From: an uncultured Candidatus Saccharibacteria bacterium
GTDB lineage: Bacteria; Patescibacteriota; Minisyncoccia; Phycocordibacterales; CAIZIN01
Assembly: GCA_964472605.1 (NCBI GenBank)
Contig: CAYYLG010000001.1
Span: forward strand, 11,119 to 66,160
DNA length: 55,042 nucleotides
Direction: 5' to 3'
A model generated the notes under the pieces. The model was not told the origin of the DNA. It did not search any database and was given only the letters and a program-made list of their open reading frames with translations. How positions within the stretch are numbered: the stretch's first letter is position 1; each line of letters begins with the position of its first letter. Below are positions 1,953 through 55,042 of this stretch, piece by piece. The translations under genes were made by a program, and so were the position numbers.

Positions 1953-1992
1953 TTACCTACTTGAGGGCGATTTCTTTTTTGGATCAATAAAA

Positions 1993-8549: not shown

Positions 8550-8795
8550 ATGAGAGAAATTTTAGTACTGTATCCAGGATCTTCTTATGAAGAAACTATC
8601 ATGGCAGAAAACATAAGAGATGCTCGCCGTATTCTTAAAGAAAAGAATAATGGCAAGTCTGTTCCTAAAGGAACGGAGTTTCGATATGTAAATACTAATT
8701 ATATCTTTCCACCAAAAGATAAAAAACTTACAGAAAAACAAACTAAAAATACAGAAATAGCAAAGTCTTATCCTGGTTTATTTTCAGTCAAATGA
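8550..8795 (+). CDS. hypothetical protein (81 aa)
   Basis: AAGGTGA lies upstream of the ATG, and the ORF is tightly packed against its neighbours. Confidence 0.55.
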   Translation: MREILVLYPGSSYEETIMAENIRDARRILKEKNNGKSVPKGTEFRYVNTNYIFPPKDKKLTEKQTKNTEIAKSYPGLFSVK

Positions 8796-9268
8796 TAGAC
8801 ATGGAACCAATGTTCGAAAAAGACACTTATTATGATGAATTTCATTATAAAGTTGTTATAGATAATTCTTGTTCTGACGAAATAAAAGAAATCTGTATTA
8901 AATATTGGGATATTAAAGCAACCATGCCATATACCATATGGATTTATCAAATTAAAGAAATATGTTCTGATTATAATATTAATAGAAATAAATTATGGTC
9001 TATAGTAAAAGAAAATTCTTATGCCTATTTAAGGAAATGTAAACAATGCAAAGGTCCAATGGAAAAGTTTTATCTTAGAACACAAATTAATACCATGATG
9101 GAACGTAGAGATAATAGAAGAGTCTGCGATACCTGTAAAAGTTTAAATAAAGTTAAAGATCGTAAAATGGACTTTGTAGAATTTGAAATGATTGATAACT
9201 TTCAAAGAGAAGAAGTAAAATCTTTTGAACCAACATTTGGAAACAGAATAGATAATTTAGAATTATGA
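8792..9268 (+). CDS. hypothetical zinc-ribbon protein; C-terminal ...DNLEL tail
   Basis: ATGA overlap with the upstream gene. Contains CKQC...CDTC. Ends in the D-h-h-E-h tail shared by about 10 proteins. Confidence 0.6.
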   Translation: MIDMEPMFEKDTYYDEFHYKVVIDNSCSDEIKEICIKYWDIKATMPYTIWIYQIKEICSDYNINRNKLWSIVKENSYAYLRKCKQCKGPMEKFYLRTQINTMMERRDNRRVCDTCKSLNKVKDRKMDFVEFEMIDNFQREEVKSFEPTFGNRIDNLEL

Positions 9269-28029: not shown

Positions 28030-28557
28030 ATGCAATTTTATATACCATCAATTGGTGATCAAATTAGACTCCTTGAAGGCTGGCGTTTTAGATTATTTGC
28101 AGAATATAGAAACTCTGCTTTTGCTGCTGCCATTTTTGGATATGGAGTAGATGGTGTCGCTCAAAATGAAAAGAAAAGAGATTTTTTAACAGATTTACAG
28201 TCTGCTCAATTCAAACTTGATAAGTTAAAAAGCAAATCTCTTGTTCCAACTGCTCAAGGCTCTCCTCAATTTAGGGATATATGGGGAGCCAACGGAGATT
28301 TTTTAATTGTAACTCTTCCGAAGGGATTGATTCTTACTGTAGATAGAATCTATATCCGAAAAGGTAAAGAAGATTTTGATTCAATTACATTTAATGTTCC
28401 CAAGAAAACATCAAATGTAGAAGGTCTTAATGGAAGGTTTTGGGCAAAACTTTCTGATGTGAATAGATTGCAATTTGAAAAGTTTATTCCAGGCAAACAG
28501 TCTTGGATTAGCTCTGTTGATGAAGAGTATGATGAATTTGATTTAGTTGAAATATGA
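28030..28557 (+). CDS. hypothetical protein (175 aa); C-terminal ...FDLVEI
   Basis: TAGGAGAA lies upstream of the ATG. Ends in the shared C-terminal tail. Confidence 0.65.
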   Translation: MQFYIPSIGDQIRLLEGWRFRLFAEYRNSAFAAAIFGYGVDGVAQNEKKRDFLTDLQSAQFKLDKLKSKSLVPTAQGSPQFRDIWGANGDFLIVTLPKGLILTVDRIYIRKGKEDFDSITFNVPKKTSNVEGLNGRFWAKLSDVNRLQFEKFIPGKQSWISSVDEEYDEFDLVEI

Positions 28558-28796
28558 AAATAAGTTATGGAGATAAGTCCGCAGAAGTCCATCTAATAAA
28601 ATCAGATATTGATATTGGAAATTGGACTGTTAGTTTTGATTTTTCTGTTTTAGCTTCAAACCCTGAAGAGGCAGCAAAACTAATAGATATTCTTAAAATA
28701 GAATATGAAAATTTAATAAATCCTTCTCCAATTTCTGTAAACCAAATAGAACAAGAAATAGAAATTGAAGATTATTTTAAATTTATTGAAATATGA
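28554..28796 (+). CDS. hypothetical protein (80 aa); C-terminal ...FKFIEI
   Basis: ATGA overlap with the upstream gene. Ends in the shared C-terminal tail. Confidence 0.6.
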   Translation: MKISYGDKSAEVHLIKSDIDIGNWTVSFDFSVLASNPEEAAKLIDILKIEYENLINPSPISVNQIEQEIEIEDYFKFIEI

Positions 28797-29323: not shown

Positions 29324-29558
29324 AACCTGGTGTTTAAAAGAGAAGAAAAGGTTTTATACTGAATTTATTCCCAAATATAGTAAAGCAAGATTGGATTTCT
29401 CTTTCTTTGGTGAGATTATTAGACCTTTAAAAAAGTATAAGAGATTTAAAGTCGTAAGATGTCCAGATTGTAATCGTCGTTTAACTGTTTCTTCAGAATA
29501 TGATATGGATGGTTTTGAAATATATTATTATATACCACCGCATAAAAAAAGATCATGA
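29304..29558 (+). CDS. hypothetical basic protein with CxxC (84 aa)
   Basis: Start overlaps the upstream gene. Contains RCPDCNRR. Confidence 0.5.
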   Translation: MKLKKSRTWCLKEKKRFYTEFIPKYSKARLDFSFFGEIIRPLKKYKRFKVVRCPDCNRRLTVSSEYDMDGFEIYYYIPPHKKRS

Positions 29559-29980
29559 AATATAGTGCTTATCATAATTACAGTATGCATAAAAACTTAA
29601 TAATGTTTTTGTTGGAAAAAACTCCAACTAAATATTTTGATAAAAATGGTTATAATATATGTTTTGGTGATACAGTTAAAGTTCCTGTATTGAGGGCTAG
29701 TGAATGTAAGAAAATTAGAAACAAAAATCATGGTCTTTTTTATTTAAATGGTATTGTTGTACCAGAAAATATTGGTACTAAAAATTATGAACCACAAATA
29801 ATGTTTTGGTCAGAGGATGTATCTAAATTAACAAATCCAATTAGACCAGAGATATTCTCTCAACATCTTTTTTATGCTGAAGAATTGTCATGGAAAGAAG
29901 TTGAAATTACAAACAATAAGACGGAATTGTTGAGTAGACAAAATAATTTTGAAGATACTTTAGATTTTATAGAGATTTAA
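29555..29980 (+). CDS. hypothetical protein (141 aa); C-terminal ...LDFIEI
   Basis: ATGA overlap with the upstream gene. Ends in the shared C-terminal tail. Confidence 0.6.
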   Translation: MKYSAYHNYSMHKNLIMFLLEKTPTKYFDKNGYNICFGDTVKVPVLRASECKKIRNKNHGLFYLNGIVVPENIGTKNYEPQIMFWSEDVSKLTNPIRPEIFSQHLFYAEELSWKEVEITNNKTELLSRQNNFEDTLDFIEI

Positions 29981-42489: not shown

Positions 42490-42990
42490 ATGCCTCCTGA
42501 AGATAGAAGAGATTCTGAATATTCTATATGGAATGACTCATTTGGTGGTTATGGCTATGGTTTTTCAACAGACTATAGTTTAGATCATTTTGATGTTGTT
42601 CTTCCTGATTTTAGTGAACTACAAACTAGAATAAAAGAAATTGAGGAAGAACGACGCCTAAGAGCGCTTCTTGAAAATAAAAAGAAGTTTGGTGAAATTT
42701 GGATACAAAACACAACGAATAGAGTTTTGCTAGTTCCTATTCTTAATGTTGGGTTGCCAATAGCAGAACCAATTAACTTAATGGAATATACGGATGTTAA
42801 TTTTCTTAAGGAAAATGCTTTAACAATTTTTGACTGGATTCAGCAACAATCTGGAGTAAGTGTTTGGTATCATAAACCAAATGAAAGACCTATTATTGGT
42901 GCTGAAAATATTAAAAATGTTGTAACTGGATTTAATCCTGAAGAAAAAGAAAATAATATTGATGATTTCACAGATTTGATTGAATTATAA
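42490..42990 (+). CDS. hypothetical protein (166 aa); C-terminal ...FTDLIEL
   Basis: TAAAATG junction with the upstream gene. Ends in the shared C-terminal tail. Confidence 0.6.
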   Translation: MPPEDRRDSEYSIWNDSFGGYGYGFSTDYSLDHFDVVLPDFSELQTRIKEIEEERRLRALLENKKKFGEIWIQNTTNRVLLVPILNVGLPIAEPINLMEYTDVNFLKENALTIFDWIQQQSGVSVWYHKPNERPIIGAENIKNVVTGFNPEEKENNIDDFTDLIEL

Positions 42991-43001
42991 AGGACAATTA
43001 T

Positions 43002-43232
43002 ATGGCTACTTTTTCTATTTCACAAGAGATTCATTTGTCGGCATTTTTACCAGACTCAAAGATGGATGCGGTTATTGTTATTAGAAGTAATAATAGAATG
43101 ACTCTTGAGTCGGATTGTATGGATTATGCATTTTCTCCAAGAGATGCAGATATTCTATCAAAAATGTTTAAGAAAGCTTCAAAAATAGCAAGACATACTA
43201 ACTTTCCAGAATATGAAACAATTGAAGTATGA
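43002..43232 (+). CDS. hypothetical protein (76 aa); C-terminal ...YETIEV
   Basis: AAGGA lies upstream of the ATG. Ends in the shared C-terminal tail. Confidence 0.55.
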   Translation: MATFSISQEIHLSAFLPDSKMDAVIVIRSNNRMTLESDCMDYAFSPRDADILSKMFKKASKIARHTNFPEYETIEV

Positions 43233-43489
43233 AAAATTGGATAACAAGAGATGGTAGAACTGTTGGTTTGCAGGATATGGATTCTACCCATTTAAGAAAT
43301 ATACTTAACTTAATGCAGAAAACTTCTCTAAAAAAAAGAATACCAATGAATCGAGTTAGGATTGGCAAGAACTCAGATATAACTTATTTGGATATTCAAG
43401 AAGCATTAAGGTTTGCGAAGCCAGTAAATAATTCTCAAATTAATACAGAAGATTCACCAGATAGTATAATTGATATGTTGGAAATATGA
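43229..43489 (+). CDS. hypothetical protein (86 aa); C-terminal ...IDMLEI
   Basis: ATGA overlap with the upstream gene. Ends in the shared C-terminal tail. Confidence 0.55.
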   Translation: MKNWITRDGRTVGLQDMDSTHLRNILNLMQKTSLKKRIPMNRVRIGKNSDITYLDIQEALRFAKPVNNSQINTEDSPDSIIDMLEI

Positions 43490-43499
43490 TAGAGTAATA

Positions 43500-43535
43500 T
43501 GGCCAACTTACTTGATTTGGTGTGGTCACTATAAG
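43500..43535 (+). promoter_or_regulatory. promoter, TGGCCAA-N-TTGAC class
   Basis: TGGCCAA 43500-43506, TTGATT 43512-43517, TATAAG 43530-43535 (short spacer). Confidence 0.4.
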
Positions 43536-43575
43536 AAAATTTATTTACTGGTGACTGAAAGGAAATCAAAAACCA

Positions 43576-44475
43576 ATGAAAAAAAATTCTAAAAGTTTTG
43601 ATATCTTTAAAAGACTTGGGTATGAGTCTGTAGAAAATCAAAAGGTTAAAACGCTTTTAGCGGGACAGTTGTTGGTTTCTATTCCTTGGTTAATTATTTG
43701 TTTTTTATTTATGTTAATCATTGAATGGTTATCACCAAACTTTTTTAACTATCCATATTTTTACTTAAACATTCAATCAATACTTTACTTCACTCCACTA
43801 TTTGCTTATGCTGCTGTCATGGCAGGATTATCAACATTAAGCATTGTTTCAACAGTTAAAGATGAGGAAAATTTTGCTTTAGGAATAGGAACTTCAGTTC
43901 TTGCTGGAACTTGGGAAGAATTAGGTTTTAGATGGATATTTATTTGTACCTCAATGGCCGGTATTGTAGTTATGAACTGGTTATTAGGTACATTTTTTAT
44001 TTGGTTTCTTGTTGTTTTCTTTTTTGGAATATCGCTTTTCCTACTTCTTGGTGGTGATGGATTTAAGAAGTTAATTTCAATAATACCATTTGGATTTGGG
44101 ATGCTTTTCTTTCATCTTGCAGGAAAAACAGATCCTTTACTTTGGTTATATGATGTTTTCTTTCTTCCAGTAACAAATTTCTTTACTATTGGTTTCTTTG
44201 AGAACATTTTGTATGGCGACTATCCAAAATTATTTATCTTTGGTATGATTGCAGCAAATGCAAAATTTAGGGATGGACATAAGTACCAAGGACCGATTGG
44301 TATTGTAAACTCTTGGTTTGTTGGTTTTATTCTAATGTACTGTATGCTTACCTATGGTTTGTTTACTGCTATTATTCTTCATATTATTTACGATCTAGAG
44401 TTTGATATTATCAGATATGTTGGTCGTAAATTGTATGGAACAAAGGGTTATGAAGTAACTATAGAAAATGCCTAA
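43576..44475 (+). CDS. CPBP-family (CAAX protease/Abi-like) intramembrane metalloprotease
   Basis: Multiple TM segments. Motifs GTWEELGFRW (EExxxR) and AIILHIIYD (HxxxD). Confidence 0.65.
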   Translation: MKKNSKSFDIFKRLGYESVENQKVKTLLAGQLLVSIPWLIICFLFMLIIEWLSPNFFNYPYFYLNIQSILYFTPLFAYAAVMAGLSTLSIVSTVKDEENFALGIGTSVLAGTWEELGFRWIFICTSMAGIVVMNWLLGTFFIWFLVVFFFGISLFLLLGGDGFKKLISIIPFGFGMLFFHLAGKTDPLLWLYDVFFLPVTNFFTIGFFENILYGDYPKLFIFGMIAANAKFRDGHKYQGPIGIVNSWFVGFILMYCMLTYGLFTAIILHIIYDLEFDIIRYVGRKLYGTKGYEVTIENA

Positions 44476-45301
44476 AATAAATGTATATTATAAAGAAGAA
44501 GACAAAAAAACAACTTGGTCAGATGTTAGAGGGAATAGGTATCTTGGATATTCCATTCACTACAAGTTATATAATCTTAAAACACATTGTAGAGCAAGAG
44601 ATAATAATATATTAATTACAACAGGAACTAATGATGAAAAATATTATATATTAAATCAGGTGTCTTGGAATAGTCTTGTAACTACATATGCTTGTCCAAC
44701 TTCTTATTCAAAAGGAAGTTTAGAAAATGTTTTCAAAAAACAATTAAGTCAAATTATTGAAACCTTCTATAATATAAAAGATAACTTTGTAAAAATAAGT
44801 TATCTAAGGAAAGAATACAAGATAAGAATATTTTGTGCAGGGTATCACTTTTATATAGAAAGACAAGGCAAAGAATACATTACTAGTTTCCCTGCTGCTT
44901 TTAACATAGAAACAAAAACATTTCAGAGATTATATTTAGCAAAATATTATGTACTAGCAGTTATTGTCGCTTTTTTAAAGCAAGAAAACTTGTTTAATAC
45001 AGAAGTTAAGTTTTCTTATAAAGAAGGTGATCTACCAGAAAGAAGCTCATATAATATTTCTAATCAAGTTATAGAAGAATTGTATCAAGAACAAATTCAA
45101 TTCAGGGGAATTAATAGAGAAGAATATTTAAAAACAATTGCAGAAGAACGTGCAAAATTAAAATATGAAGAAGAAAGAGAAAGACAAAGAGTTTTGTTTG
45201 AAGAAAAAAAGAAAAAAGAAGAATTAGAAAAGAAAAGAATTAAAATGCAAGAAAAATATAAGGATGTTGATGACTCTGACATTAGGTTTATTGAATTATG
45301 A
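44468..45301 (+). CDS. hypothetical protein (277 aa) with K/E-rich coiled region; C-terminal ...IRFIEL
   Basis: Start overlaps the upstream gene. Ends in the shared C-terminal tail. Confidence 0.6.
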   Translation: MPKINVYYKEEDKKTTWSDVRGNRYLGYSIHYKLYNLKTHCRARDNNILITTGTNDEKYYILNQVSWNSLVTTYACPTSYSKGSLENVFKKQLSQIIETFYNIKDNFVKISYLRKEYKIRIFCAGYHFYIERQGKEYITSFPAAFNIETKTFQRLYLAKYYVLAVIVAFLKQENLFNTEVKFSYKEGDLPERSSYNISNQVIEELYQEQIQFRGINREEYLKTIAEERAKLKYEEERERQRVLFEEKKKKEELEKKRIKMQEKYKDVDDSDIRFIEL

Positions 45302-45501
45302 TAATTAAGGATAGTGAGGTATTTAATGAATTTAGATTTCCAATAACTGAATTAAGAATTCGCATTCTTGATCCCACACCTCGGGTTGCTCATTTTTGGG
45401 TTCCAGCAAATCAGAATGAAAACTTTAATTTAAGAGAATTGGTGCCAAATCATTTAAAGAATCATTTTCCTACAATGAAATACAACAAAAATCAAGAATA
45501 A
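45298..45501 (+). CDS. hypothetical protein (67 aa)
   Basis: ATGA overlap with the upstream gene. Confidence 0.5.
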   Translation: MIIKDSEVFNEFRFPITELRIRILDPTPRVAHFWVPANQNENFNLRELVPNHLKNHFPTMKYNKNQE

Positions 45502-45516
45502 GGCCAATGCTTGATA
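45501..45516 (+). promoter_or_regulatory. promoter motif (variant AGGCCAA-N3-TTGATA)
   Basis: AGGCCAA 45501-45507 and TTGATA 45511-45516. Confidence 0.35.
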
Positions 45517-45533
45517 ATCATCTTAATATATAA

Positions 45534-45564
45534 GATCCTGCATATTGCGGGGTCTTTTTATTTT
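45534..45564 (+). terminator. terminator-like hairpin just downstream of the promoter motif
   Basis: GATCCTGC-ATATT-GCGGGGTC (8 bp including two G.U pairs) followed by TTTTTATTTT. Confidence 0.5.
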
Positions 45565-45574
45565 GGAGGTAAAT

Positions 45575-46447
45575 ATGGCAAAAAGAAGAAATTTTCCTGT
45601 TGAATTTGAATGGGAAAACGAGCAAAGGACTGCTAAATTTACAGATATTGCAGTACAAAGATATGATATTGAAGAAAGATCAATAATGGGCGACTTCAGT
45701 TGGAATCCTAACATACCATGTTATTATATTTATACTAAAAAATTTAATATTCTTGCGCTTACTTATAGTAGATTTAAAACCCCAAGGGTTGTTCAGCATT
45801 CAATTGCAGGATTTGAAAATAGAGTTGGTAATGAACATATTTTTTTACTATTACAAAGCACTGAAAATGAATTGGAAAACAATAAGTATGTAGTTCATGA
45901 TATGTTGAATCCAAAATTATTTTTTGAAAAGAATGATTGGATATTTTCAACCAGATCTAAGTTTTTAATAAATATAGCACAAATACCGGATATAGGCTTT
46001 TCTTCTGTTGATTTTGATACTTGGAGAAAATCTGCATTATTAGATTTTTTAAATGGATATATACATCATAATAATAGGTATCTTGAGCATATCTTTAACA
46101 CAAGAAGAAATAGAACTAGAAATGAAATAGGAACCGTTAGATTATTACATAGAAAAGACGATGATACAGGATATGAGGGTCATGTCTTTGGTTATAAATA
46201 TTATGTTGGAAAAGCAAAAGAATCTTCTGATGCTAGAAGACAATGCCAAGGCTTCTGTTCTTCTTTGGGAATAGAAACCAATCTATTTCATAATTATGCT
46301 GCTGCCGCTATCTCTCTTGAAGAAAAACTGGCCGAATATTGGGCAGAGAACTACAAGAGATTTAGAGTATATTATAGAGACCGGGATATCTTGCGTCCTA
46401 GACTAAAAACAATTCCAGTAAATAGATTAGATCAATTGGAGATTTAA
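45575..46447 (+). CDS. hypothetical protein (290 aa); C-terminal ...LDQLEI
   Basis: GGAGG lies upstream of ATG 45575. Ends in the shared C-terminal tail. Confidence 0.65.
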   Translation: MAKRRNFPVEFEWENEQRTAKFTDIAVQRYDIEERSIMGDFSWNPNIPCYYIYTKKFNILALTYSRFKTPRVVQHSIAGFENRVGNEHIFLLLQSTENELENNKYVVHDMLNPKLFFEKNDWIFSTRSKFLINIAQIPDIGFSSVDFDTWRKSALLDFLNGYIHHNNRYLEHIFNTRRNRTRNEIGTVRLLHRKDDDTGYEGHVFGYKYYVGKAKESSDARRQCQGFCSSLGIETNLFHNYAAAAISLEEKLAEYWAENYKRFRVYYRDRDILRPRLKTIPVNRLDQLEI

Positions 46448-46975
46448 ATGTTTTGTAATTCATATAATTTTTTAGATATGCCTCACTTATTGAAGCGTCG
46501 TCCAATGATGAGACATGTAAGAGGACGTAGATTTGATGAAGTTATGTCAATACAGCAGGAAGAAAGAGAAATTATAAATCAATATAAAGAAAAACTAAAA
46601 AACTTTATTCCTCTTGAAGTTAAAACAGATGCAAGTTGGGGAAACATTCAAAGTAAATGGATGGAAGACCTAAGAAGGCGAGGCCGTGGTCCCAGAATTA
46701 ATCCAAGGGACATTACACGCATTAGACAAGAGCTAGATGCCTATGTGACACTTTATCAATCCAATAAGCTTCTTAAACTCTATATGCTTGCAGAGAAGAT
46801 AGAGAAGAGGCAGTTAGGGTCTTTAGCTCCCTCAGAGCCCTTAAAGCCCCCAAGACGTTCGAGAGGGCTTCAGAATACCCTTCCAAGCCCCAATCCCTTC
46901 GATTCTCAAATCATTTTCTATGAGGATTTTCAAGAGATGACACAATTCTCTCCACCGCCTCCACAGAATTTATGA
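46448..46975 (+). CDS. hypothetical protein with basic middle and Pro-rich C-terminus (175 aa)
   Basis: TAAATG junction with the upstream gene. The 3' half is locally GC-richer. Confidence 0.6.
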   Translation: MFCNSYNFLDMPHLLKRRPMMRHVRGRRFDEVMSIQQEEREIINQYKEKLKNFIPLEVKTDASWGNIQSKWMEDLRRRGRGPRINPRDITRIRQELDAYVTLYQSNKLLKLYMLAEKIEKRQLGSLAPSEPLKPPRRSRGLQNTLPSPNPFDSQIIFYEDFQEMTQFSPPPPQNL

Positions 46976-46996: not shown

Positions 46997-47344
46997 ATGC
47001 ATTCTTTTGATTTTCCAAATCCTAAAAATCATGCTTTCTTCTACTTTGAAGAAATACCAATATACTATGATGAATATCAAGATGATGAGCCTGATGATCC
47101 TTTGGATTTTTTAGTTCATGAAATATTTGATTATAAGTTTTCCATTAGAAAATATGAACAGAAATTATTTTTAGATGATTCTATGGTTAATGGAAAATTA
47201 GTAGAATACTTTGATTGGGCAAGAGAAAAATATCAAGAAATAGTAGATTCAAAACAATATAGTTATGCTCTACATGCAGCAGAACTATTGTTTGACTATA
47301 TCCCAAGTAGTTTTTGGCTTAAAGAAATTGATAAATATAAGTAA
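46997..47344 (+). CDS. WxFP-family member
   Basis: GGGAGAAG lies upstream of the ATG. N-terminus MHSFDFPNPKNH. Confidence 0.65.
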   Translation: MHSFDFPNPKNHAFFYFEEIPIYYDEYQDDEPDDPLDFLVHEIFDYKFSIRKYEQKLFLDDSMVNGKLVEYFDWAREKYQEIVDSKQYSYALHAAELLFDYIPSSFWLKEIDKYK

Positions 47345-47597
47345 ACAATTTGATTTTCCTGATCCTGAAGCTTTAGAAGTAGAAGCTGATGGCGAAATAA
47401 AAAGGGTTTTTGAAGATGGTAGTATTGTTTGGACAAAAGATGGACATAGACATCGAGGATTTGATTTGCCCGCATTTATTTCAAGTGATGGAAGTAAATA
47501 TTGGTATAAAAATGGATGTATAAGTAGAGATTGTGGACCGGCTGTTATTCTTTTTACTGGAGAACAAATTTTTTATAAAAACGGAAAGATAATATAA
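47328..47597 (+). CDS. WxFP-family member with NG..HR..GPA (MORN-like) repeats
   Basis: KQFDFPDPEAL. There is no nearby ATG, so a TTG 47328 start is assumed. Contains WTKDGHRHRG...WYKNGCISRDCGPA...FYKNGKI. Confidence 0.45.
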   Translation: MINISKQFDFPDPEALEVEADGEIKRVFEDGSIVWTKDGHRHRGFDLPAFISSDGSKYWYKNGCISRDCGPAVILFTGEQIFYKNGKII

Positions 47598-47752
47598 TGA
47601 TTATAAAAGAAGAAGATTTAATTTCATATTTTAAATATCCCGAAAATTGCAATAGTAATCTGTTCATTAAGATTTCTAATTTATCACAAAAGGATAGAGA
47701 AAAGTTGCAAAGTTATTGGAATAATTTATGGGGAAATTTTTTTAATGTCTGA
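47597..47752 (+). CDS. small ORF, weak family member (51 aa)
   Basis: TAATG overlap with the upstream gene. Contains SYFKYPENCN. Below the track length cutoff. Confidence 0.4.
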   Translation: MIIKEEDLISYFKYPENCNSNLFIKISNLSQKDREKLQSYWNNLWGNFFNV

Positions 47753-48020
47753 GAATATAAATAATTTTGAATTCCCCAATAGAGCTAATTTTACTACTGA
47801 TATTGATGAGATTGATGTTATGAAATTAATGAATGCTTGGCGAAGAGGAGAAGTCCCAACAGAAACCGTTAAGCTTTGGATTGGTGTATCAAATGAAGAA
47901 GAGTCCAGGCAACTTGAAAGAGAAATAGAAGATGATTATAATCAAGGTTTAATTATTAATTATAGATTAAAAGAAAATTCTCATAGAGATATAAATCTTA
48001 GGTTTTTAGAAGATGAATAA
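47745..48020 (+). CDS. WxFP-family member (subfamily B)
   Basis: NNFEFPNRANF. Confidence 0.6.
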   Translation: MSENINNFEFPNRANFTTDIDEIDVMKLMNAWRRGEVPTETVKLWIGVSNEEESRQLEREIEDDYNQGLIINYRLKENSHRDINLRFLEDE

Positions 48021-48468
48021 GTTTGAATTTCCAAATATATATAATTTTCTTCCTGAAGAATTTGGTTTTCTTAACTATAGATTTATGCTTTCTGAAAATC
48101 TAGAAACAAATGAAGAAAAGATAAATAGGATTAGAGAAATTTTAGATAGACATTGTTTGGATTTAAGGAGAGTACTTAAAGAACATATAAATCTTAATCT
48201 TGAAGAAAAGATACAATGGATTGAAGAAGCATATTATACTGCCGAGATAGGTTATCTTTTAAGCGGAGATCCAAAATATTATAAAAAATCAAAATACTTT
48301 GAGTTACTACTTAAAGTATATAAAAATCCAGAAATGAAAAAAATGGAATTAAGAACAAGGCTAGAAGCTAAAAGACAAAAATCTATTGACAGAAAAACAG
48401 TTCAACAAATTATATCTAATGGGGATAGTTATTTATTAAATGATAATGAACGAATGGGATTTTCCTGA
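48013..48468 (+). CDS. WxFP-family member (subfamily A)
   Basis: MNKFEFPNIYNF. Confidence 0.6.
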   Translation: MNKFEFPNIYNFLPEEFGFLNYRFMLSENLETNEEKINRIREILDRHCLDLRRVLKEHINLNLEEKIQWIEEAYYTAEIGYLLSGDPKYYKKSKYFELLLKVYKNPEMKKMELRTRLEAKRQKSIDRKTVQQIISNGDSYLLNDNERMGFS

Positions 48469-48709
48469 TGCAGAAAATTATTTACATAAAGTTGAACATT
48501 TGATGGGCACTCAATACCAAGACTCAGATTGGATTGAGGGAGTTAGAATTGTTCTAAATAGAAATAAAAAACATAAATCAAAAGAAGAACATCAAGAGTT
48601 TGTTAAAAAAGTACTTATTATAGTTAATAAAGCATATGATAATACAGGAGCAAAAAGATATAGAGATTTTATTAGAGAAATAGAAAATGCATATAATATC
48701 AAAGTTTAA
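48440..48709 (+). CDS. WxFP-family member (subfamily A)
   Basis: MIMNEWDFPDAENY and an internal AYDNTG motif. Confidence 0.6.
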   Translation: MIMNEWDFPDAENYLHKVEHLMGTQYQDSDWIEGVRIVLNRNKKHKSKEEHQEFVKKVLIIVNKAYDNTGAKRYRDFIREIENAYNIKV

Positions 48710-48989
48710 CTTTCCAGATCCACATGACTTTTTACCTGATCATCTTTTTATAAAAGATAAAGATGATATTTTAGTTTCACCATTTGAAGAAAGATGGTGT
48801 AATGTTATGAACTGGGCATTAAAAGTAGAGCCTAAAACCGAAATAAAATATAAATACATAAAAATTCTAAAAGAAGCTTTTGAAATCACAGAATGTGATC
48901 ATATAAGAAATTTCTTATTAAGAAGAGATATAGAATTGCTTGTAGGTAGATTTAAATATTTTGAAGAGTATGGCCCTTATGTTAGATAA
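48687..48989 (+). CDS. WxFP-family member (subfamily A)
   Basis: SKFNFPDPHDF. Confidence 0.6.
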   Translation: MHIISKFNFPDPHDFLPDHLFIKDKDDILVSPFEERWCNVMNWALKVEPKTEIKYKYIKILKEAFEITECDHIRNFLLRRDIELLVGRFKYFEEYGPYVR

Positions 48990-49254
48990 AATAAAAATAG
49001 ATGAGAGCCTTCGATTTCCTGATCCAAAAAACTTTCATTTGGAAGCTTCTACATTTGGGGGTGTAAATTATTTGAATCCAAAATGGGCGGACAAAGCTTT
49101 TCAGTATTTCAAAGAATCTCTCCCAAAAACAAATATGGCTATACTTTTAAAAAGTAATATTTTGAGAGAACTTACTATAGCATATGACAATACTGGTGAT
49201 TTAAAATTAAAAAAAATAATAAAAGAAGTTGAAAATACCAGTGTAGTAATTTAA
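48979..49254 (+). CDS. WxFP-family member (subfamily A)
   Basis: ESLRFPDPKNF and AYDNTG. The start is uncertain; the ORF opens at 48961. Confidence 0.5.
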   Translation: MLDKIKIDESLRFPDPKNFHLEASTFGGVNYLNPKWADKAFQYFKESLPKTNMAILLKSNILRELTIAYDNTGDLKLKKIIKEVENTSVVI

Positions 49255-49264
49255 GGAAAGCAAA

Positions 49265-49858
49265 ATGAAAAACAAATCAAAAAATCTTCTGATTCTAGAA
49301 AATGGTTTTGAAATTCCATATTTCAAAAATCATTATACTTACCCAGCAACAAAGGGTAATAATTGTGAAAAATATATTAAAGAAATATCTAACTTTTCAA
49401 ATGATAGTTTAGAAAAACTTACAAAAGAAAATGTAGAGGAAGCTCAAGAAATAATTACTAAAGCAGAAGAAGCTTTACAAAATTGGAAAGAATTCGAAGA
49501 CTTTGAAAGTAATGAAATTATAGAAGTTAGAGATCTGGAAAAAGAACTTGAAAAATTAGAACATATGACTGTCTTTGATTTACATTTTCAATTATCAAGA
49601 AGCTATAAACAAGTTAGTCGTGTTTTCGATTTGTTTGATGATTTGTTTATAGTGTGCCATACTCATAAAGAATTATTAGATTGTTTTAAAAAAATAGAAA
49701 ATCTTTATAAAGTTTTAAATCAAAAATTAGAAAATGGTTTGGGTAAAAATGTAGGAAATTTAATCGTAAAAAGAAAAGAGGACACAGTTAGAAATACAGG
49801 AGAAACTAATGAATGTACAGGACAATCAACGAGTGTGGGAGAATATCAAACCACATAG
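49265..49858 (+). CDS. WxFP-family member (longer, 197 aa)
   Basis: NGFEIPYFKNH. AAGGAAAG lies upstream of the ATG. Confidence 0.6.
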   Translation: MKNKSKNLLILENGFEIPYFKNHYTYPATKGNNCEKYIKEISNFSNDSLEKLTKENVEEAQEIITKAEEALQNWKEFEDFESNEIIEVRDLEKELEKLEHMTVFDLHFQLSRSYKQVSRVFDLFDDLFIVCHTHKELLDCFKKIENLYKVLNQKLENGLGKNVGNLIVKRKEDTVRNTGETNECTGQSTSVGEYQTT

Positions 49859-49862
49859 AATT

Positions 49863-50156
49863 ATGCTAAACCATTGCTGGGATACTCCAGACCCCTATAA
49901 TTTTTTAGATTCTGAATGGATGTTTAATAGTACAATTGGCATAGATGTTAATGGAGAAAATTTTCATATTCCACTTTATACAACAGAATCACAGACAACA
50001 ACGCCTTCAAGGTGGACAAATGAACCAGTATGGCTAGAAGAAAGACCAGAAATATTATTACCAAGATTTGATTTTGGCCCTTACAATATAAGGGTAAGTA
50101 GTCCTGTAATTGATACAAGATTGACATATGGGATTATAACTTCTGTAGAGGCATAA
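49863..50156 (+). CDS. WxFP-family member
   Basis: MLNHCWDTPDPYNF. ATG 49863 was chosen because it does not overlap the upstream gene. Confidence 0.55.
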   Translation: MLNHCWDTPDPYNFLDSEWMFNSTIGIDVNGENFHIPLYTTESQTTTPSRWTNEPVWLEERPEILLPRFDFGPYNIRVSSPVIDTRLTYGIITSVEA

Positions 50157-50158
50157 AC

Positions 50159-50488
50159 ATGGAATGGGATTTTCCAAATTATGAAAATTATCTGTATCCT
50201 GTTGAATATTGTATATTTAAAACAACTTTGTTTGCAAATACAAGAGAACTAATATTTGATACAGATCATTTTACTAATACAGAAATGTGGATTAAAAGAG
50301 TTAGAATTATGCTACATCAAGATAACTCACACTTGAAGGGCTTTGATAAATTAAAAAGAATTGAAGAACTTAAAAAAATAAAGACAGACTGTACAAATGC
50401 TTTTGAAAACACAAATAATATTAAAATAAAACCTCTTTTAGCAGAGATAGACAGTCAAATGGAAATACTTTATAAGAGCGATAAATGA
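50159..50488 (+). CDS. WxFP-family member (subfamily A)
   Basis: MEWDFPNYENY and an AFENTN motif. Confidence 0.65.
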   Translation: MEWDFPNYENYLYPVEYCIFKTTLFANTRELIFDTDHFTNTEMWIKRVRIMLHQDNSHLKGFDKLKRIEELKKIKTDCTNAFENTNNIKIKPLLAEIDSQMEILYKSDK

Positions 50489-50703
50489 TGATTATATCAA
50501 TAGATAATTGGGCATACCCTTTTTTTAATAATTTTTGTGATTTAAAAGACATTAATTTAAATGAGGATATGTTTAATTTTATAGGAGAAAATTTAGTTTT
50601 AGTTAATAGCAAATACTGGCAAACACCAACAGAAGGAACTGAAGAGTGGAAAATTTTAAATGAATATTTTACGGAAAGAAATATTAGTTACATTTACGTC
50701 TGA
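50485..50703 (+). CDS. WxFP-family member
   Basis: IDNWAYPFFNNF, close to the partial last member IDNWTYPNFNNY. Confidence 0.55.
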   Translation: MMIISIDNWAYPFFNNFCDLKDINLNEDMFNFIGENLVLVNSKYWQTPTEGTEEWKILNEYFTERNISYIYV

Positions 50704-50878
50704 ATGGGAATATCCTAATTATAGGAATTTTCAAGAAAAAAAGTTAGGGATTGTTCCTTTAATTGAGATTGGAGAAGTAAATCTTCAGCCTTTACAAGCA
50801 AGTGCTATGAATTTAGTTAATTATTTGAGGTCAAGACATGGAATGGGAAATACCGAAGAAACAGAATCATTTACCTAA
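50660..50878 (+). CDS. WxFP-family member
   Basis: TSEWEYPNYRNF. The only ATG gives a 44-nt overlap with the upstream gene. Confidence 0.5.
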   Translation: MNILRKEILVTFTSEWEYPNYRNFQEKKLGIVPLIEIGEVNLQPLQASAMNLVNYLRSRHGMGNTEETESFT

Positions 50879-51464
50879 AGTTGAGCACGAACAGACTCTT
50901 ATTGACAATCCCGAATTGTGGGCCAAATCAATGAGAGATACTATTTTCGATATTAGACATGATTTTAAAAGACCAAAAGAAGATGAAAAGATTAATTGGA
51001 TTGCAACAAATATAAAAACAATTGTTGGAATACTTAATAGAATTAAACATGAATGTCAGAAAGCGTATGATGCTATTGGATACAAAGACATTCTTGAAAT
51101 CATAAAAGAATTAGACGAATTCCTAAAGAATCCACAAAACTTCCCTCTCGCAAATACAAATAAAAATAAAATGTATATTCCTGCATTTGAATATGGACTT
51201 TTAGGCCCGAATAATGAAAGAAAAAAGGGTGTAAAAATCCATATAAATGGTCCGTATTCTCAATCTATGGCCGATTTTATTGAAAATATCAGAAGCAACC
51301 CCGATTATTGGTGTGAATTCCATAACCTGGGATTTACTACATTAAAAAATAATGAAAATTATTATGCTTTTTATGACTGGATGCCACGAAAAGAATCAAT
51401 ACCAGCAAGAGAAATGCGAGAAAGAATAGAAGATTTACAGCGCAGAACAAATGGTGAAATTTAA
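50838..51464 (+). CDS. WxFP-family member (208 aa, subfamily A)
   Basis: MEWEIPKKQNH and an AYDAIG motif. Confidence 0.6.
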   Translation: MEWEIPKKQNHLPKVEHEQTLIDNPELWAKSMRDTIFDIRHDFKRPKEDEKINWIATNIKTIVGILNRIKHECQKAYDAIGYKDILEIIKELDEFLKNPQNFPLANTNKNKMYIPAFEYGLLGPNNERKKGVKIHINGPYSQSMADFIENIRSNPDYWCEFHNLGFTTLKNNENYYAFYDWMPRKESIPAREMRERIEDLQRRTNGEI

Positions 51465-51733
51465 TGGATAAAGAAACTAAAATTATATATAGCTTTGGAT
51501 TAATGATTTATCTTGAAGATATTCAAGATCCAATTTCTTTATCAGGACGAGTAAGCATAGATGAACATCTTAGTAATAGTGATAGAATTACTGATATAGA
51601 TAAATTTTATTCAAAGACATATACTGTTGGAGATATTGTAATTGTAGAAAATGCAAATGAAGTTAATAAATATTTTGCTCCAAGTCCCCTGTATATGATA
51701 AATAAATACCTTCATCAAGATGAAGACAACTAA
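51464..51733 (+). CDS. hypothetical small protein (no family motif)
   Basis: TAATG overlap with the upstream gene; 89 aa. Confidence 0.5.
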   Translation: MDKETKIIYSFGLMIYLEDIQDPISLSGRVSIDEHLSNSDRITDIDKFYSKTYTVGDIVIVENANEVNKYFAPSPLYMINKYLHQDEDN

Positions 51734-51953
51734 TTGGGATATCCCAGATAAAAAGAACTACTTTGAGTTCTTTAAAGAAGATAATATAGAATTACTTAAA
51801 AAATGGCGCAAGAAAGAAATTAGTTTAGAAAATTATCTTGACAGTATTCCAAAAGAATATTCCGAAGCTTTGATTAAATACTGTGAAGAAGAAAGAATTA
51901 ATTTAGTATTATACCTAGAGTCAGTATGCTGGGCACTATTTGAAGAAAATTAA
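51720..51953 (+). CDS. WxFP-family member (subfamily B)
   Basis: MKTTNWDIPDKKNYF and LENYLDSIPKE. Confidence 0.6.
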   Translation: MKTTNWDIPDKKNYFEFFKEDNIELLKKWRKKEISLENYLDSIPKEYSEALIKYCEEERINLVLYLESVCWALFEEN

Positions 51954-51964
51954 GGATAAATAAA

Positions 51965-52228
51965 ATGAAAATGTATATCATTGTAGATAATATTACCGGA
52001 CAAGCACTATCCAAATACTCTCCTCATTCAGAAGACCTCTGGGAATGGGATGGAGAATATATTGATGACTTTGGTGAGTATATGACTAATGTCGAAATTT
52101 TCGGCGCAGAAGAGGCAGATAAAGCAATTGAACACCTAATACAAGTCTTCGATCAAACAGATGGTCAAGATACCGACTTTGAGAAAGTAGAAGTTGAAAA
52201 AGCTAAAGTTTATAAATTGGCAGAATAA
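51965..52228 (+). CDS. acidic hypothetical small protein (no family motif)
   Basis: AAGGA lies upstream of the ATG; 87 aa. Confidence 0.5.
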   Translation: MKMYIIVDNITGQALSKYSPHSEDLWEWDGEYIDDFGEYMTNVEIFGAEEADKAIEHLIQVFDQTDGQDTDFEKVEVEKAKVYKLAE

Positions 52229-52458
52229 TGGAATTCGATTTCCCTAAACCAGAAAACCATACAGAATTCTTTCTTTTTAAAAGAAAGCATCACCCAATTC
52301 AATGTTATGAATTGGTTCTACATTCAAAGAAAGATTTAGAAGAATTGATACAAAAAGCTAAATTAAATAGTGAATGGTATGCGTATGTAGATACCCATGA
52401 AGAAATGATAAATTTTTTTGCAAAAGAAGTATGGAGAAATAAATATGCCATTAACTGA
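52228..52458 (+). CDS. WxFP-family member
   Basis: MEFDFPKPENH. Confidence 0.6.
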   Translation: MEFDFPKPENHTEFFLFKRKHHPIQCYELVLHSKKDLEELIQKAKLNSEWYAYVDTHEEMINFFAKEVWRNKYAIN

Positions 52459-52651
52459 AAAGGAAATAGAATTAACAGAAACACTCGGTAGTGTTTGGAA
52501 TGAGTTTCTTAAATTAGAACCAAAACATCCCCTAGATAATCATGAATTCGTTGATGCCATACACAAAGCACAACACCTAATCATGATTCGAGCGGCTAGA
52601 AGAGATCATCCAGATATCTTTTATACGGAAAAGAAAAATGAAAACAACTGA
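52445..52651 (+). CDS. hypothetical small protein (no family motif)
   Basis: GGAG lies upstream of ATG 52445. Confidence 0.45.
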   Translation: MPLTEKEIELTETLGSVWNEFLKLEPKHPLDNHEFVDAIHKAQHLIMIRAARRDHPDIFYTEKKNENN

Positions 52652-53075
52652 TTGGGACTTTCCAAACCCAAATCTACTAAGATCAACCAAAGTACCAAAG
52701 TTCTTTGATACCATACACACAGAACAACCAGAGAAATGGGCCTACCAATTTAAAGGTAGGCTCTATTTTAGTAGAGATACAGAAGCCACACTCTTTACAA
52801 GATTTGATGGCGAAAACTTCAGAGAAGAACAAGAAACTCAATTCAAATTCTATGGAGAAGTCCTCCTAGATCAACTACAAGAAGCCTATAATGATACCGG
52901 CTCGCTCGCAATTAAAAAAGTTATGCAAGATAAGTATTTTTTAGAATTTCTAGAAAAATTAAAAGATGAAAATACTAGAAACAAATTAGCAAAAAAAGCG
53001 CAAGAAGAACAAGAGAATAGGTTCTACTCACCAATAAACAAACCAATTGATTGGCAAATACCAAACGAGGAATAA
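52638..53075 (+). CDS. WxFP-family member (subfamily A); second motif copy at its C-terminus
   Basis: MKTTDWDFPNPN, an AYNDTG motif, and a C-terminal IDWQIPNEE. Confidence 0.6.
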   Translation: MKTTDWDFPNPNLLRSTKVPKFFDTIHTEQPEKWAYQFKGRLYFSRDTEATLFTRFDGENFREEQETQFKFYGEVLLDQLQEAYNDTGSLAIKKVMQDKYFLEFLEKLKDENTRNKLAKKAQEEQENRFYSPINKPIDWQIPNEE

Positions 53076-53078
53076 ATT

Positions 53079-53369
53079 ATGAATTGGCTACTACCTGAAA
53101 GCAAAAACTTTATCAACTCTCCAGAACAATATAGAAATCTACTTGAAGACTTTATGGATAGAAAAATCACAACAGAACAATATATGAATGCTATCCCACA
53201 AGAACAAAAAGATACCATCAATCAAATGGTAGAAGAAAAAGGACTTGAATTAGATCTTACTATTGCTACTATTCATTATGTCGTAACTAAGAATATTAAA
53301 AAATTAGATCAATTTTTGGCCGAAAAAGCTGTAGAGGATCTGGAAAATGAAGATTTGCAAGATTTGTGA
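53079..53369 (+). CDS. WxFP-family member (subfamily B)
   Basis: MNWLLPESKNF and EQYMNAIPQE. Confidence 0.55.
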   Translation: MNWLLPESKNFINSPEQYRNLLEDFMDRKITTEQYMNAIPQEQKDTINQMVEEKGLELDLTIATIHYVVTKNIKKLDQFLAEKAVEDLENEDLQDL

Positions 53370-53679
53370 ATGGGACTTTCCATCAGAAGAACTCTATAAA
53401 GAACAATTTTTTAGTAAATTCACAAACAATTTAGCAGAATCATTACTAAATAGATTAAATACTTCCTCATTTTATTATGAAAAACTTACTGATTCAGAAC
53501 TGTTAGAATGTTATGAACAAGGATATATAACAACAGTTAACTTACTTAACATAATACCAGCCGAAGCAAGAATTGAGGCTGTAAGATCAAATAGAACACA
53601 TGGAAATTTAACTCAAGATGATAGACAAAATATCGCCAATACAATTCGAAGATCAATGGGAATATCCAGAACCCCATAA
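53347..53679 (+). CDS. WxFP-family member (subfamily B)
   Basis: CEWDFPSEELY and NLLNIIPAE. Confidence 0.55.
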   Translation: MKICKICEWDFPSEELYKEQFFSKFTNNLAESLLNRLNTSSFYYEKLTDSELLECYEQGYITTVNLLNIIPAEARIEAVRSNRTHGNLTQDDRQNIANTIRRSMGISRTP

Positions 53680-53851
53680 CTTCTTTAATCGAATTAAATA
53701 CAAAAAAGAAAATGTCTTGGGAATAGGGGATGGAAAACCTGTCTTCTTCGATCTCACACTTAGATATGATGAAAAAGTAGACGAATTCTATATGCATCAA
53801 ATTAGACACCTGGAAAATCAATTAGCTAAGGAATTTGAATACTATGATTAA
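53618..53851 (+). CDS. WxFP-family member
   Basis: EDQWEYPEPHNF. The only ATG gives a 62-nt overlap with the upstream gene. Confidence 0.5.
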   Translation: MIDKISPIQFEDQWEYPEPHNFFNRIKYKKENVLGIGDGKPVFFDLTLRYDEKVDEFYMHQIRHLENQLAKEFEYYD

Positions 53852-54068
53852 AATCGCAGACGAATGGAGCTTACCTAACTTCAAAAACTTCGCTACACCC
53901 GAAGACTACGAAAGAATAGCAGAACTCTACCACACAAAAGAACTCTCAACATATCAAGTCTTTCAACTACTACCTAAAATGGCTGTACATAAACTTAAAA
54001 AAAGCATCCTGTTTAAAACAACGTATACAGGAGCAAGTTACCTCAGCCTCTTACCACAAGAAAAATGA
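53844..54068 (+). CDS. WxFP-family member (subfamily B)
   Basis: ADEWSLPNFKNF and YQVFQLLPK. Confidence 0.55.
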   Translation: MIKIADEWSLPNFKNFATPEDYERIAELYHTKELSTYQVFQLLPKMAVHKLKKSILFKTTYTGASYLSLLPQEK

Positions 54069-54136
54069 GAACTTCTAAACCAATTATATGAAATTAGAAC
54101 CAATAAAATACCTATAGAATTTTTCGGAGAATAAAA

Positions 54137-54538
54137 ATGGATGATAAATTATTTGAAAAACTAAGTTGGGAATACTCCCCCATCACAATAAAAGAAGTCA
54201 AAGAACATACCAAAACAGAAGATGTCTTTCATTGCCTTAAAGCAACATTAGGACTCTTTACACTCATTGTCTTCTATAGAACCGGATACATACCACCAAA
54301 TCACAATCTTAATAAACCATTCAAACCACTACAACCAACATCCAATGTCTTTAAACTAATGCTCTTTGGAGAATTGCCAATCCTAAACAACTACAAAACA
54401 GGCAAAGACCTACACGAAGATGTCACTCAATGCCAAAGAGAACTAGAAGATCTACTCCTAAAACATATAGAAGAATGCAACTCCTGGCCGCAAGAAATAG
54501 AAGATCAAAGAAAACAAGAATGGCTTAACAAAATATAA
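54137..54538 (+). CDS. hypothetical protein, weak family member (133 aa)
   Basis: GGAGAA lies upstream of the ATG. Contains LSWEYSP. Confidence 0.5.
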   Translation: MDDKLFEKLSWEYSPITIKEVKEHTKTEDVFHCLKATLGLFTLIVFYRTGYIPPNHNLNKPFKPLQPTSNVFKLMLFGELPILNNYKTGKDLHEDVTQCQRELEDLLLKHIEECNSWPQEIEDQRKQEWLNKI

Positions 54539-54595
54539 ATAGAATTTATTTTAAATAATTTCTGATTTTTTGCGCAAAAGTAAAAGGTTACTCAA

Positions 54596-54901
54596 ATGCA
54601 ATGGCACCCACCAGAACCACTTAACCACACACCATTCATCATAGCAGAAATAAATGGTATACCATTCGAGCACCCACAATGGCTCGCAACACTAAAAGCA
54701 TACTACGAAAATGCAATCAAACCTACATTAGATGGATTACCAGAACACTCACATAAATACTACCTGGTATCACAACTCACAAAAGCATACCTTGATACCA
54801 ATAGAAAAGATATCAAAGAATTCCTCACACAAGTACTACAAGAATATGATGAATACTTCGCTAAACACTCACATTACGGTAGAAGAGCTATAATAGAATG
54901 A
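54596..54901 (+). CDS. WxFP-family member (subfamily A)
   Basis: MQWHPPEPLNH and an AYLDTN motif. Confidence 0.6.
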   Translation: MQWHPPEPLNHTPFIIAEINGIPFEHPQWLATLKAYYENAIKPTLDGLPEHSHKYYLVSQLTKAYLDTNRKDIKEFLTQVLQEYDEYFAKHSHYGRRAIIE

Positions 54902-55042
54902 TTAAAATAGATAATTGGACATACCCTAACTTTAATAATTATGACGAATTCTATCCAGAAACACTCCCTCAAGAAAGTATCCTATATATCCCACAAAGAA
55001 TACCGGAATCAGAATTGTCTAATTATATTAGGATTAAACCTA
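54898..55042 (+). CDS. WxFP-family member (5' partial, runs off the window)
   Basis: ATGA overlap with the upstream gene. N-terminus MIKIDNWTYPNFNNY. Confidence 0.55.
   Translation, partial: MIKIDNWTYPNFNNYDEFYPETLPQESILYIPQRIPESELSNYIRIKP

Follow-up and report, generated by a model that had tools for sequence, protein, structure and literature searches.

The internal proteins of phage T4 have kept only a conserved 10-residue capsid-targeting sequence (CTS), and their gene content varies among related phages. The N-terminal 10 residues are enough to bring diverse and even foreign proteins into the prohead core, and gp21 then cleaves them off (PMC3012670; PMC9026906). Giant-phage virions contain paralog families of up to about 20 members, as in paralog family B of SPN3US, and N-terminal propeptides of giant-phage virion proteins are thought to target them into the prohead (PMC5694885). 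PeSLs are intergenic DNA cassettes, made up of a sigma-70-like promoter and a stem-loop terminator, that recombine (PMC2839356). Here we describe a run of 27 overlapping or abutting small open reading frames (ORFs) at 46997..55042 on the + strand of a 55,042-nt window, the whole stretch of DNA that was analysed. By its sequence, the source is an uncultivated huge phage with a distant link to phage G. Most of the encoded proteins carry a short peptide motif, hereafter the tag, near the N-terminus of otherwise different bodies, and the array is best explained as a lineage-specific tandem expansion of small, soluble accessory proteins that are mostly acidic.

Coordinates are window positions, "extended coordinates" continue the window numbering past 55042, and L001 positions follow that contig's own numbering. 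The window forms the 3' end of an ENA contig of 65 kb, and a 120-kb contig (L001/L006) and a 4.8-kb contig (L003) of identical sequence extend it. According to the ORF listing, with which gene calls on identical public contigs agree, the 27 ORFs encode 51-208 amino acids (aa) and are tightly packed. Neighbors overlap by 1-62 nt or abut, and only two gaps, of about 60 nt, occur. The motif is found in 23 of the 27 (22 strong and one weak carrier). The initial annotation had described a tandem array of small motif-bearing genes from 46997; this description stands, and all of the motif variants it quoted are present in the ORFs. Its further suggestion that the array runs on past the window is borne out by the longer contigs. 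The final window ORF, which starts at 54898, ends at 55053, and two further clear members follow in extended coordinates, 55046-55279 (EWDTPKAINL) and 55276-55479 (EWELPHAYNY), and then two degenerate ones. The array has ended by ~55.7-56.6 kb (extended coordinates), at a distance of ~0.5-1.5 kb from the window edge, and thus measures ~8.7-9.6 kb in total, with ~25 clear members. All recovered array-bearing contigs are 99.97-100% identical, and the array sequence is identical across several independent assemblies. Samples in which the phage is present include ERZ27283041, ERZ22308622 and SRR6837549.

The tag is a 9-10 residue peptide with the consensus [WF]-[DE]-[FYIL]-P-[NDEK]-x-x-N-[FYH], for example MIKIDNEWDFPNPENYL. 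From the nearest in-frame start codon to its W/F, the distance is 2-15 codons. About half of the members have an alternating hydrophobic leader ahead of it (I-K-I-D-N-W, V-K-I-N-E-W, I-I-S-K-F-N-F-P), and the residue just ahead of the W is commonly E, N, Q or D. We built a 10-residue position matrix from the 25 listed members and scored each by leave-one-out. The score was at least 10.6 bits in 24 of 25 members, a level reached by 4 of 60,109 six-frame 10-mers outside the array. Within the first 25 residues of the 31 ORFs of the extended array, 24 matrix hits were observed against 0.05 expected (Poisson P about 2e-55). The proposed conservation of the motif therefore goes beyond what composition provides.

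ORFs this small, without homologues anywhere, could be chance ORFs or debris, with the motif a compositional artefact. A codon model trained on 27 long window ORFs speaks against this: the phage-like codon usage is found solely in the own frame, which scores best in 31 of 31 ORFs of the extended array. The ORFs are also densely packed in one shared direction, the motif is enriched as described above, AlphaFold returns confident folds and their sequence recurs identically in several independent assemblies. We regard the possibility that they are not genes as barely credible. Recoding of a stop codon, which would create false small ORFs, was ruled out as well; all three stops are in use, neighbors differ in frame and the codon model fits. 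The array ORFs conform to the standard code, with TAA or TGA as the stop in all but one of them.

The initial annotation had noted that the core of the motif is also conserved as DNA. A TGGGAYTTYCC core does recur, but it follows from the peptide, because the amino-acid motif imposes it in an AT-rich genome, and it is not an independent DNA element. The Pro codon begins with an invariant CC in 25 of 25 members, while its third base (A in 12, T in 10, C in two, G in one) matches background. For Asn, 14 members use AAT and 10 use AAC. At the W position, TGG alternates with TTT or TTC, a two-base change that keeps the aromatic residue. Conservation of the motif acts on amino acids, with codon positions 1 and 2 fixed and the third free.

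This bears on the suggestion that the core works at the DNA or RNA level, either as a PeSL-like recombination handle that shuffles cassettes or as an element of the translation-initiation region. Besides the recurring core, some features are in its favor. ORFs 51720 (subfamily B, below) and 52638 (subfamily A) have MKTT[ND]WD[FI]P and a similar stop/start junction in common, vestigial motif copies are present at the 3' ends of 46448-46975 and 52638-53075, and the same tag on unrelated bodies implies some past fusions. Against these stand not only the free third codon positions but also the low identity of the DNA around the motif, where no pair of members matches exactly over more than 14 nt and the median identity is 22/48. 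Repeats in the region reach at most about 22 nt at no less than 77-82% identity, and identity within the longer families (28-58 nt) is only 62-89%. With the motif 2-15 codons from the ATG, its distance to the initiation site is not fixed. Promoter-like sites are below shuffle expectation, no terminator-like sites lie between array genes, and the single + strand match in the array falls inside ORF 52638-53075. Because the ORFs overlap and leave essentially no intergenic spacers, promoter-plus-stem-loop cassettes of the PeSL type cannot be present. The comparison with PeSLs thus fails, the recombination handle is not supported, and a DNA- or RNA-level role, which we consider very unlikely, is already largely refuted.

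Some past fusion of the tag to new bodies must still have occurred, since the same tag is found on unrelated bodies. The start and junction common to 51720 and 52638 are one trace of it. In-frame motif-like C-terminal ends are others: QFSPPPPQNL-stop in 46448-46975 (at 46943-46972) and DWQIPNEE-stop in 52638-53075 (at 53049-53072) both directly precede the next tagged gene and may be scars of fusions or deletions at the tag.

In an all-against-all BLAST comparison, full-length similarity is confined to small groups and most pairs match only at the motif. Subfamily A has seven members and a second common block, AYDNTG..IK..I.E. It comprises 48440..48709 (89 aa; motif EWDFPDAENY at 48455-48481), 48979..49254 (91 aa; SLRFPDPKNF at 49009-49035), 50159..50488 (109 aa; EWDFPNYENY at 50165-50191), 50838..51464 (208 aa; EWEIPKKQNH at 50844-50870), in which the subfamily A domain is followed by a C-terminal extension, 52228..52458 (76 aa; EFDFPKPENH at 52234-52260), 52638..53075 (145 aa; DWDFPNPNLL at 52653-52679), which ends in the vestigial copy described above, and 54596..54901 (101 aa; QWHPPEPLNH at 54602-54628). 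Subfamily B, with four to five members, shares E-[IL]-[ST]-x-x-x-Y-x-x-x-[IL]-P. Its members are 51720..51953 (77 aa; NWDIPDKKNY at 51735-51761), 53079..53369 (96 aa; NWLLPESKNF at 53085-53111), 53347..53679 (110 aa; EWDFPSEELY at 53371-53397), 53844..54068 (74 aa; EWSLPNFKNF at 53865-53891) and possibly 47745..48020 (91 aa; NFEFPNRANF at 47766-47792). ORFs 50485..50703 (72 aa; NWAYPFFNNF at 50509-50535) and 54898..55042 form a pair; the latter, cut by the window edge, encodes 51 aa in full, with its stop 11 nt past the window, and has NWTYPNFNNY at 54916-54942.

The other members are 46997..47344 (115 aa; SFDFPNPKNH at 47006-47032), 48013..48468 (151 aa; KFEFPNIYNF at 48022-48048), 48687..48989 (100 aa; KFNFPDPHDF at 48705-48731), 49265..49858 (197 aa; GFEIPYFKNH at 49307-49333), 50660..50878 (72 aa; EWEYPNYRNF at 50705-50731) and 53618..53851 (77 aa; QWEYPEPHNF at 53657-53683). 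For 49809..50156 (CWDTPDPYNF at 49878-49904), the first ATG gives 115 aa, and the likely true start is 49863 (97 aa). ORF 47328..47597 (89 aa; QFDFPDPEAL at 47349-47375) has a TTG start, with an alternative ATG at 47265, and its body is a beta-hairpin repeat with a weak resemblance to the CPAP G-box (E = 0.19). The weak carrier, 47597..47752 (51 aa; YFKYPENCNS at 47630-47656), has an MIIK-type leader and the lowest leave-one-out score. Four interspersed ORFs lack the motif: 51464..51733 (89 aa), 51965..52228 (87 aa), 52445..52651 (68 aa) and 54137..54538 (133 aa), the last with a degenerate SWEYSPITIK only. Upstream of the array, 45298..45501 (67 aa, + strand) is a possible degenerate outlier. 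Its N-terminus, MIIKDSEVFNEFRFPITEL, combines an MIIK-type leader with an F-R-F-P core, at a matrix score of only 2.6 bits.

N-termini of the form M-(S)-I-I-K/N-x-x-x-h-h-x-x-[FYW]-x-[FYIV]-P make up a sub-class with low matrix scores. They are found at both edges of the array (45298-45501 and 47597-47752 in the window, 55476-55682 and 55699-56607 in extended coordinates) and in ORFs with head-protein fragments (L001 12667 and 12950, below). From their sequence, they look like a degenerate or ancestral form of the tag.

The initial annotation had proposed a conserved N-terminal handle on diverged bodies and had recommended structure prediction for representatives. Both profiles and models agree with it. 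When the profile of A (seven members) is aligned with that of B (five members) by hhalign, 14 N-terminal columns, those of the tag, align and nothing else does. AlphaFold2, run on the A alignment (representative 48440..48709), predicts a three-helix bundle at residues 28-85, with block values of the predicted local distance difference test (pLDDT) of 86-91, while residues 1-26 have 49-57. For the B alignment (representative 51720..51953), it predicts a domain of five helices that spans residues 17-74 (block pLDDT 88-95); residues 1-13 stay below 50. The bodies of the subfamilies are unrelated. In the A and B models alike, the tag lies outside the folded domain, on a low-confidence, apparently flexible tail. 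Tag and body are joined by a linker of variable length, with 17-33 residues in A and an insertion of 24 residues in one B member. The consensus of the motif is the same in A, B and singletons, and its identity in both subfamilies points to an external constraint. The array proteins are hydrophilic and mostly acidic, with an isoelectric point (pI) of 4.1-6.9 in 27 of 31 ORFs, in many of them 4.1-5.5.

These models also bear on an explanation without any docking role, in which the motif is a structural element inherited from one ancestral small protein. It would be an N-terminal fold nucleus or cap, such as an aromatic-Pro turn, packing on each body while the bodies diverged beyond recognition. 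Tandem phage paralogs diverge very fast, and subfamily A, similar over its full length and with its second block, amounts to ordinary descent by duplication. In 47328-47597, a weak alignment makes the motif the first hairpin of the beta-repeat, and the alignments behind the AlphaFold models are shallow, at 5-7 paralogs. Yet two different confident folds, of three and of five helices, leave the motif unplaced at low pLDDT, and the A and B profiles have nothing beyond the tag in common. Moreover, the length of the linker is variable and one consensus serves helical bodies and the beta-repeat body alike. We find a structural cap unlikely.

We favor a short linear docking, or 'address', motif. This is in line with the initial annotation, whose suggestion of a docking, export or packaging signal on diversified effectors is plausible. 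Each protein would have a short flexible N-terminal tail that carries the tag, then a linker, then a folded body that differs between subfamilies, and the tag would bring all of these different bodies to one common partner surface. This reading fits best because selection acts at the amino-acid level, the tail is apparently flexible, the bodies are unrelated and the consensus does not depend on the body. Our confidence in a docking mechanism in general falls somewhat short of even. That the tail binds a partner, and what that partner is, we infer. The partner could be the prohead, as for the CTS, or the tag could dock to a single phage- or host-encoded hub, such as a protease or unfoldase or a replication or transcription factor.

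Several points weigh against this reading. The docking partner is hypothetical, and with alignments of 5-7 paralogs a low-pLDDT tail is weak evidence for disorder. Were the partner a single host hub, ~25 co-expressed proteins would compete for one site. Most of the points concern capsid loading. The array is co-directional behind 47 kb of replication and nucleotide-metabolism type genes (helicase, GMP-reductase-like protein, RNA ligase, methyltransferase) and outside any recognizable head module. No conserved protease site follows the tag, whose distance from Met1 is not fixed, and the array proteins are acidic, whereas the T4 internal proteins are basic (PMC9026906). Capsid loading, suggested by analogy with T4, thus takes less than half of the weight that we give to docking and would be a rather unlikely destination.

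As a special case of docking, the motif may be a shared N-terminal degron or a cleavage site for one phage or host protease or unfoldase, by which the whole set is matured or cleared together. The motif is N-terminal and apparently exposed, behind leaders of 2-15 residues that commonly end in E, N, Q or D just ahead of the W. An AAA ATPase is encoded in the window at 26905-27951, and a precedent exists in the T4 propeptides that are taken off by gp21 (PMC9026906). On the other hand, no recognizable protease gene adjoins the array, and no consistent cleavage-type pattern of T4 (L/I-x-E) or phiKZ (S/A/G-x-E) was found (PMC5694885). We hold a degron or processing site to be improbable.

The initial annotation did not recognize the family, and neither did any of our searches. 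Pfam, PHROGs and NCBIfam gave nothing above threshold for ~25 array and neighboring proteins, and a megablast search found no near-identical DNA in GenBank phages. Among the 20 array proteins scanned for giant-phage virion paralog families (PF12699 and relatives), there was no Pfam match above threshold. A word-indexed search of 5.8 billion protein clusters with the A profile, a 24-member motif-anchored profile and the upstream neighbor returned only proteins of the same phage. An exhaustive HMMER search of 1.84 billion representatives with the A profile returned the seven query proteins and one spurious repeat protein. In IMG/VR, neither protein-seeded scans nor a degenerate DNA pattern for E-W-D-F-P-[ND]-x-x-N-[FY] gave a match. 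The same pattern had three isolated matches in JGI metagenomes and five in GTDB genomes, which we attribute to chance since no second copy of the motif lies nearby. The consensus tag peptide had no tblastn match in 50,697 phage genomes. Foldseek searches with the A and B models against the PDB, and with B against BFVD, gave nothing better than E = 1.5, and PDB sequence searches gave E-values of at least 0.19. Judged by these comparisons, the family has no detectable relative in any database searched and is new to all of them.

A second set of proteins in the window shares a short C-terminal ending. Of the 106 + strand ORFs, 9 end in [ILVFM]-E-[ILV]-stop where 0.47 would be expected (P = 1.5e-9), and position -5 is usually acidic. 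The nine + strand ORFs are 8792-9268, 28030-28557, 28554-28796, 29555-29980, 42490-42990, 43002-43232, 43229-43489, 44468-45301 and 45575-46447, and the endings are ..DNLEL, ..DLVEI, ..KFIEI, ..DFIEI, ..DLIEL, ..ETIEV, ..DMLEI, ..RFIEL and ..DQLEI. Immediately upstream of the array, at 42490-46447, six ORFs reach 70 aa or more, and five of the nine belong to this group; the array itself has no ORF with such an ending. The nine lack homology among themselves, and none has a match in Pfam. In six of them the final codons are GAA-[AT]TA-TGA (in one, the last codon begins with G), and this sequence contains an ATGA stop/start overlap, so part of the C-terminal signal could be a DNA-level coupling signal. 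The -3 and -5 positions are conserved as amino acids.

It is conceivable that the two motifs belong to a peptide-tag sorting system of the phage's own, with the N-terminal tag on ~25 proteins and a C-terminal D-x-[ILV]-E-[ILV]-COOH tag on at least nine others. Such a system would send several dozen accessory proteins to defined destinations (prohead cargo for ejection, a phage-built compartment or a hub), and its tags would be portable, with new coding fragments gaining function by fusion. We put this forward as a speculative extension that is quite unlikely to hold. Given the C-terminal family in the same window, the phage may make general use of terminal tagging. Fragments of a head protein with array-like leaders, found downstream of the array, hint at tags that are portable by fusion. 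They are contained in three small ORFs at L001 12417-13156, ~1.8-2.6 kb past the window end, and match parts of the major head protein of phage G in a permuted order. The first corresponds to G residues 231-281, the second to 10-76 (61% identity) and the third to about 77-97; the middle of the protein is absent. Each ORF starts with MSLII or MSIIK, resembling the MIIK-type leaders at the array edges, and a repeated ~80-nt stop/start junction separates them. A duplicated head gene may have left them as remnants, or they may have arisen by fusion of fragments to leaders of the array type.

Among the C-terminally tagged genes, 43576-44475 encodes a 299-aa multi-pass membrane protein with a motif-like EWLSPNFFNY at residue 50 (13.7 bits). 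A CPBP/CAAX-protease-like reading of this protein, based on EExxxR and HxxxD strings seen by eye, was dropped, as no Pfam match was obtained even at E = 10. The best terminator-like hairpin of the region, at 45532-45556, has an 11-bp stem followed by a T-run and lies between 45298-45501 and 45575-46447, only ~18 nt ahead of the next start codon. It may be a transcription-unit boundary two genes upstream of the array.

The longest contig bearing array proteins is 206,854 bp. A 98-aa ORF just downstream of the array has 60% identity with the N-terminal region of the major head protein of Bacillus phage G. Purine-rich words resembling Shine-Dalgarno sequences precede many of the phage starts, which suggests a Firmicutes-like host. 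Gene products in the window include a DEAD/ResIII helicase, an IMPDH/GMP-reductase-like protein with an HNH segment, an RNA ligase, the AAA ATPase and a methyltransferase, along with RNA genes for tRNA-Met, transfer-messenger RNA (tmRNA) and a group I intron. The tmRNA (Rfam RF00023, 61.9 bits) at 735-1083, not called by ARAGORN, overlaps the intron (RF00028, 109 bits) at 1068-1309 by 16 nt, thus raising the possibility of an intron-interrupted tmRNA gene. The HNH segment is of the HNH_3 type and lies in the N-terminal part of the IMPDH/GMP-reductase-like protein. Two further ORFs have 'helicase-associated' HA domains and both end in ..GGYRW[EA][KR]IEV..; the coordinates listed together for these genes are 16282-17874, 1924-3294 and 6081-6953. 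An additional I-HmuI/NUMOD-like domain in one of the HA-domain ORFs marks it as a homing-endonuclease-like gene.

Base composition changes along the array. C3/(C3+T3) is 0.06-0.24 in ORFs 46997-51733, like the rest of the window, and 0.24-0.64 in ORFs from 51720 on. The distal third (window 51720-55042 plus L001 9000-12200) has negative GC skew and high AT skew. Subfamily A members are present in both compositional zones. Import from an unsampled relative could explain the distal third, as could a local mutational asymmetry. Further out, ~7-8 kb past the array, a GC-rich island at L001 17800-19400 (49-62% GC in a genome of ~30% GC) has overlapping ORFs on both strands.

Short N-terminal addresses on many diverging or unrelated bodies, often encoded by clustered genes, are known from the RxLR effectors of oomycetes, the PEXEL proteins of Plasmodium, the MIX effectors of the bacterial type VI secretion system and the cargo-loading peptides of encapsulins. 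Organisms, motifs and machineries all differ from those of the array, so the analogy is one of design only. Host-takeover modules such as SPO1 gp37-60 and the T5 pre-early genes are long runs of small co-directional genes in large phages, with functions not known, and in this they resemble the array. To our knowledge they have no common peptide tag, unlike the array. Arrays of precursors for ribosomally synthesized and post-translationally modified peptides (RiPPs) combine a leader with a short core, whereas the bodies here have 50-208 aa with confident folded domains, as predicted, and no enzyme family was detected in or next to the array. The PeSL hyperplastic regions of T4-like phages also hold small, non-conserved, probably non-essential genes in a large phage genome. 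There, however, the shared element is intergenic DNA, while in the array it is a peptide, the genes overlap and there are no cassettes.

Virion paralog families of giant phages, such as the ~20 members of SPN3US family B or the phiKZ inner-body proteins (PF12699), are likewise large and plastic families in huge phages. In contrast to the array proteins, they are larger and homologous over their full length, and they have no sequence or profile similarity to the array. Their propeptides often exceed 100 residues and have S/A/G-x-E cleavage sites, unlike the tag.

The closest analogy is to the T4 internal proteins (IPI, IPII, IPIII, Alt), which, like the array proteins, are small diverged accessory proteins that have kept only a ~10-residue N-terminal peptide. 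The peptides differ in sequence. The T4 CTS is of the MKTYQEFIAE type and the array tag reads WDFPxxxNF. The T4 tag is residues 1-10 exactly and ends in the gp21 cleavage site; the array tag floats 2-15 residues from the start, and neither an L/I-x-E pattern nor a conserved Glu was found within or after its motif columns. The internal proteins are basic, while 27 of 31 array ORFs have a pI below 7, and T4 has three to four such genes against ~25 in one uninterrupted run. Pfam, PHROGs and NCBIfam gave no match between the T4 internal proteins and the array. Because the sequence is different, the tag position is not fixed, no cleavage site is conserved, the proteins are acidic and the context is that of replication and nucleotide metabolism, the array is not a member of the T4 internal-protein family, and T4 offers an analogy only.

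In design, the array would be a much larger version of the known phage accessory proteins with a common terminal address peptide. If the tag is such a peptide, this would be only the second well-defined phage case, after the T4 CTS, of a short portable peptide that routes many proteins to one place, and with ~25 clients by far the largest. If so, ~9 kb of otherwise uninterpretable huge-phage sequence would become tractable, since finding the partner of the tag would give the destination of all the proteins. That no relative is detectable among 1.84 billion representative proteins marks a limit of homology searches and shows how lineage-specific such expansions can be. Like the T4 CTS, which is already used in this way, the tag could possibly serve as an engineering tool for loading foreign proteins.

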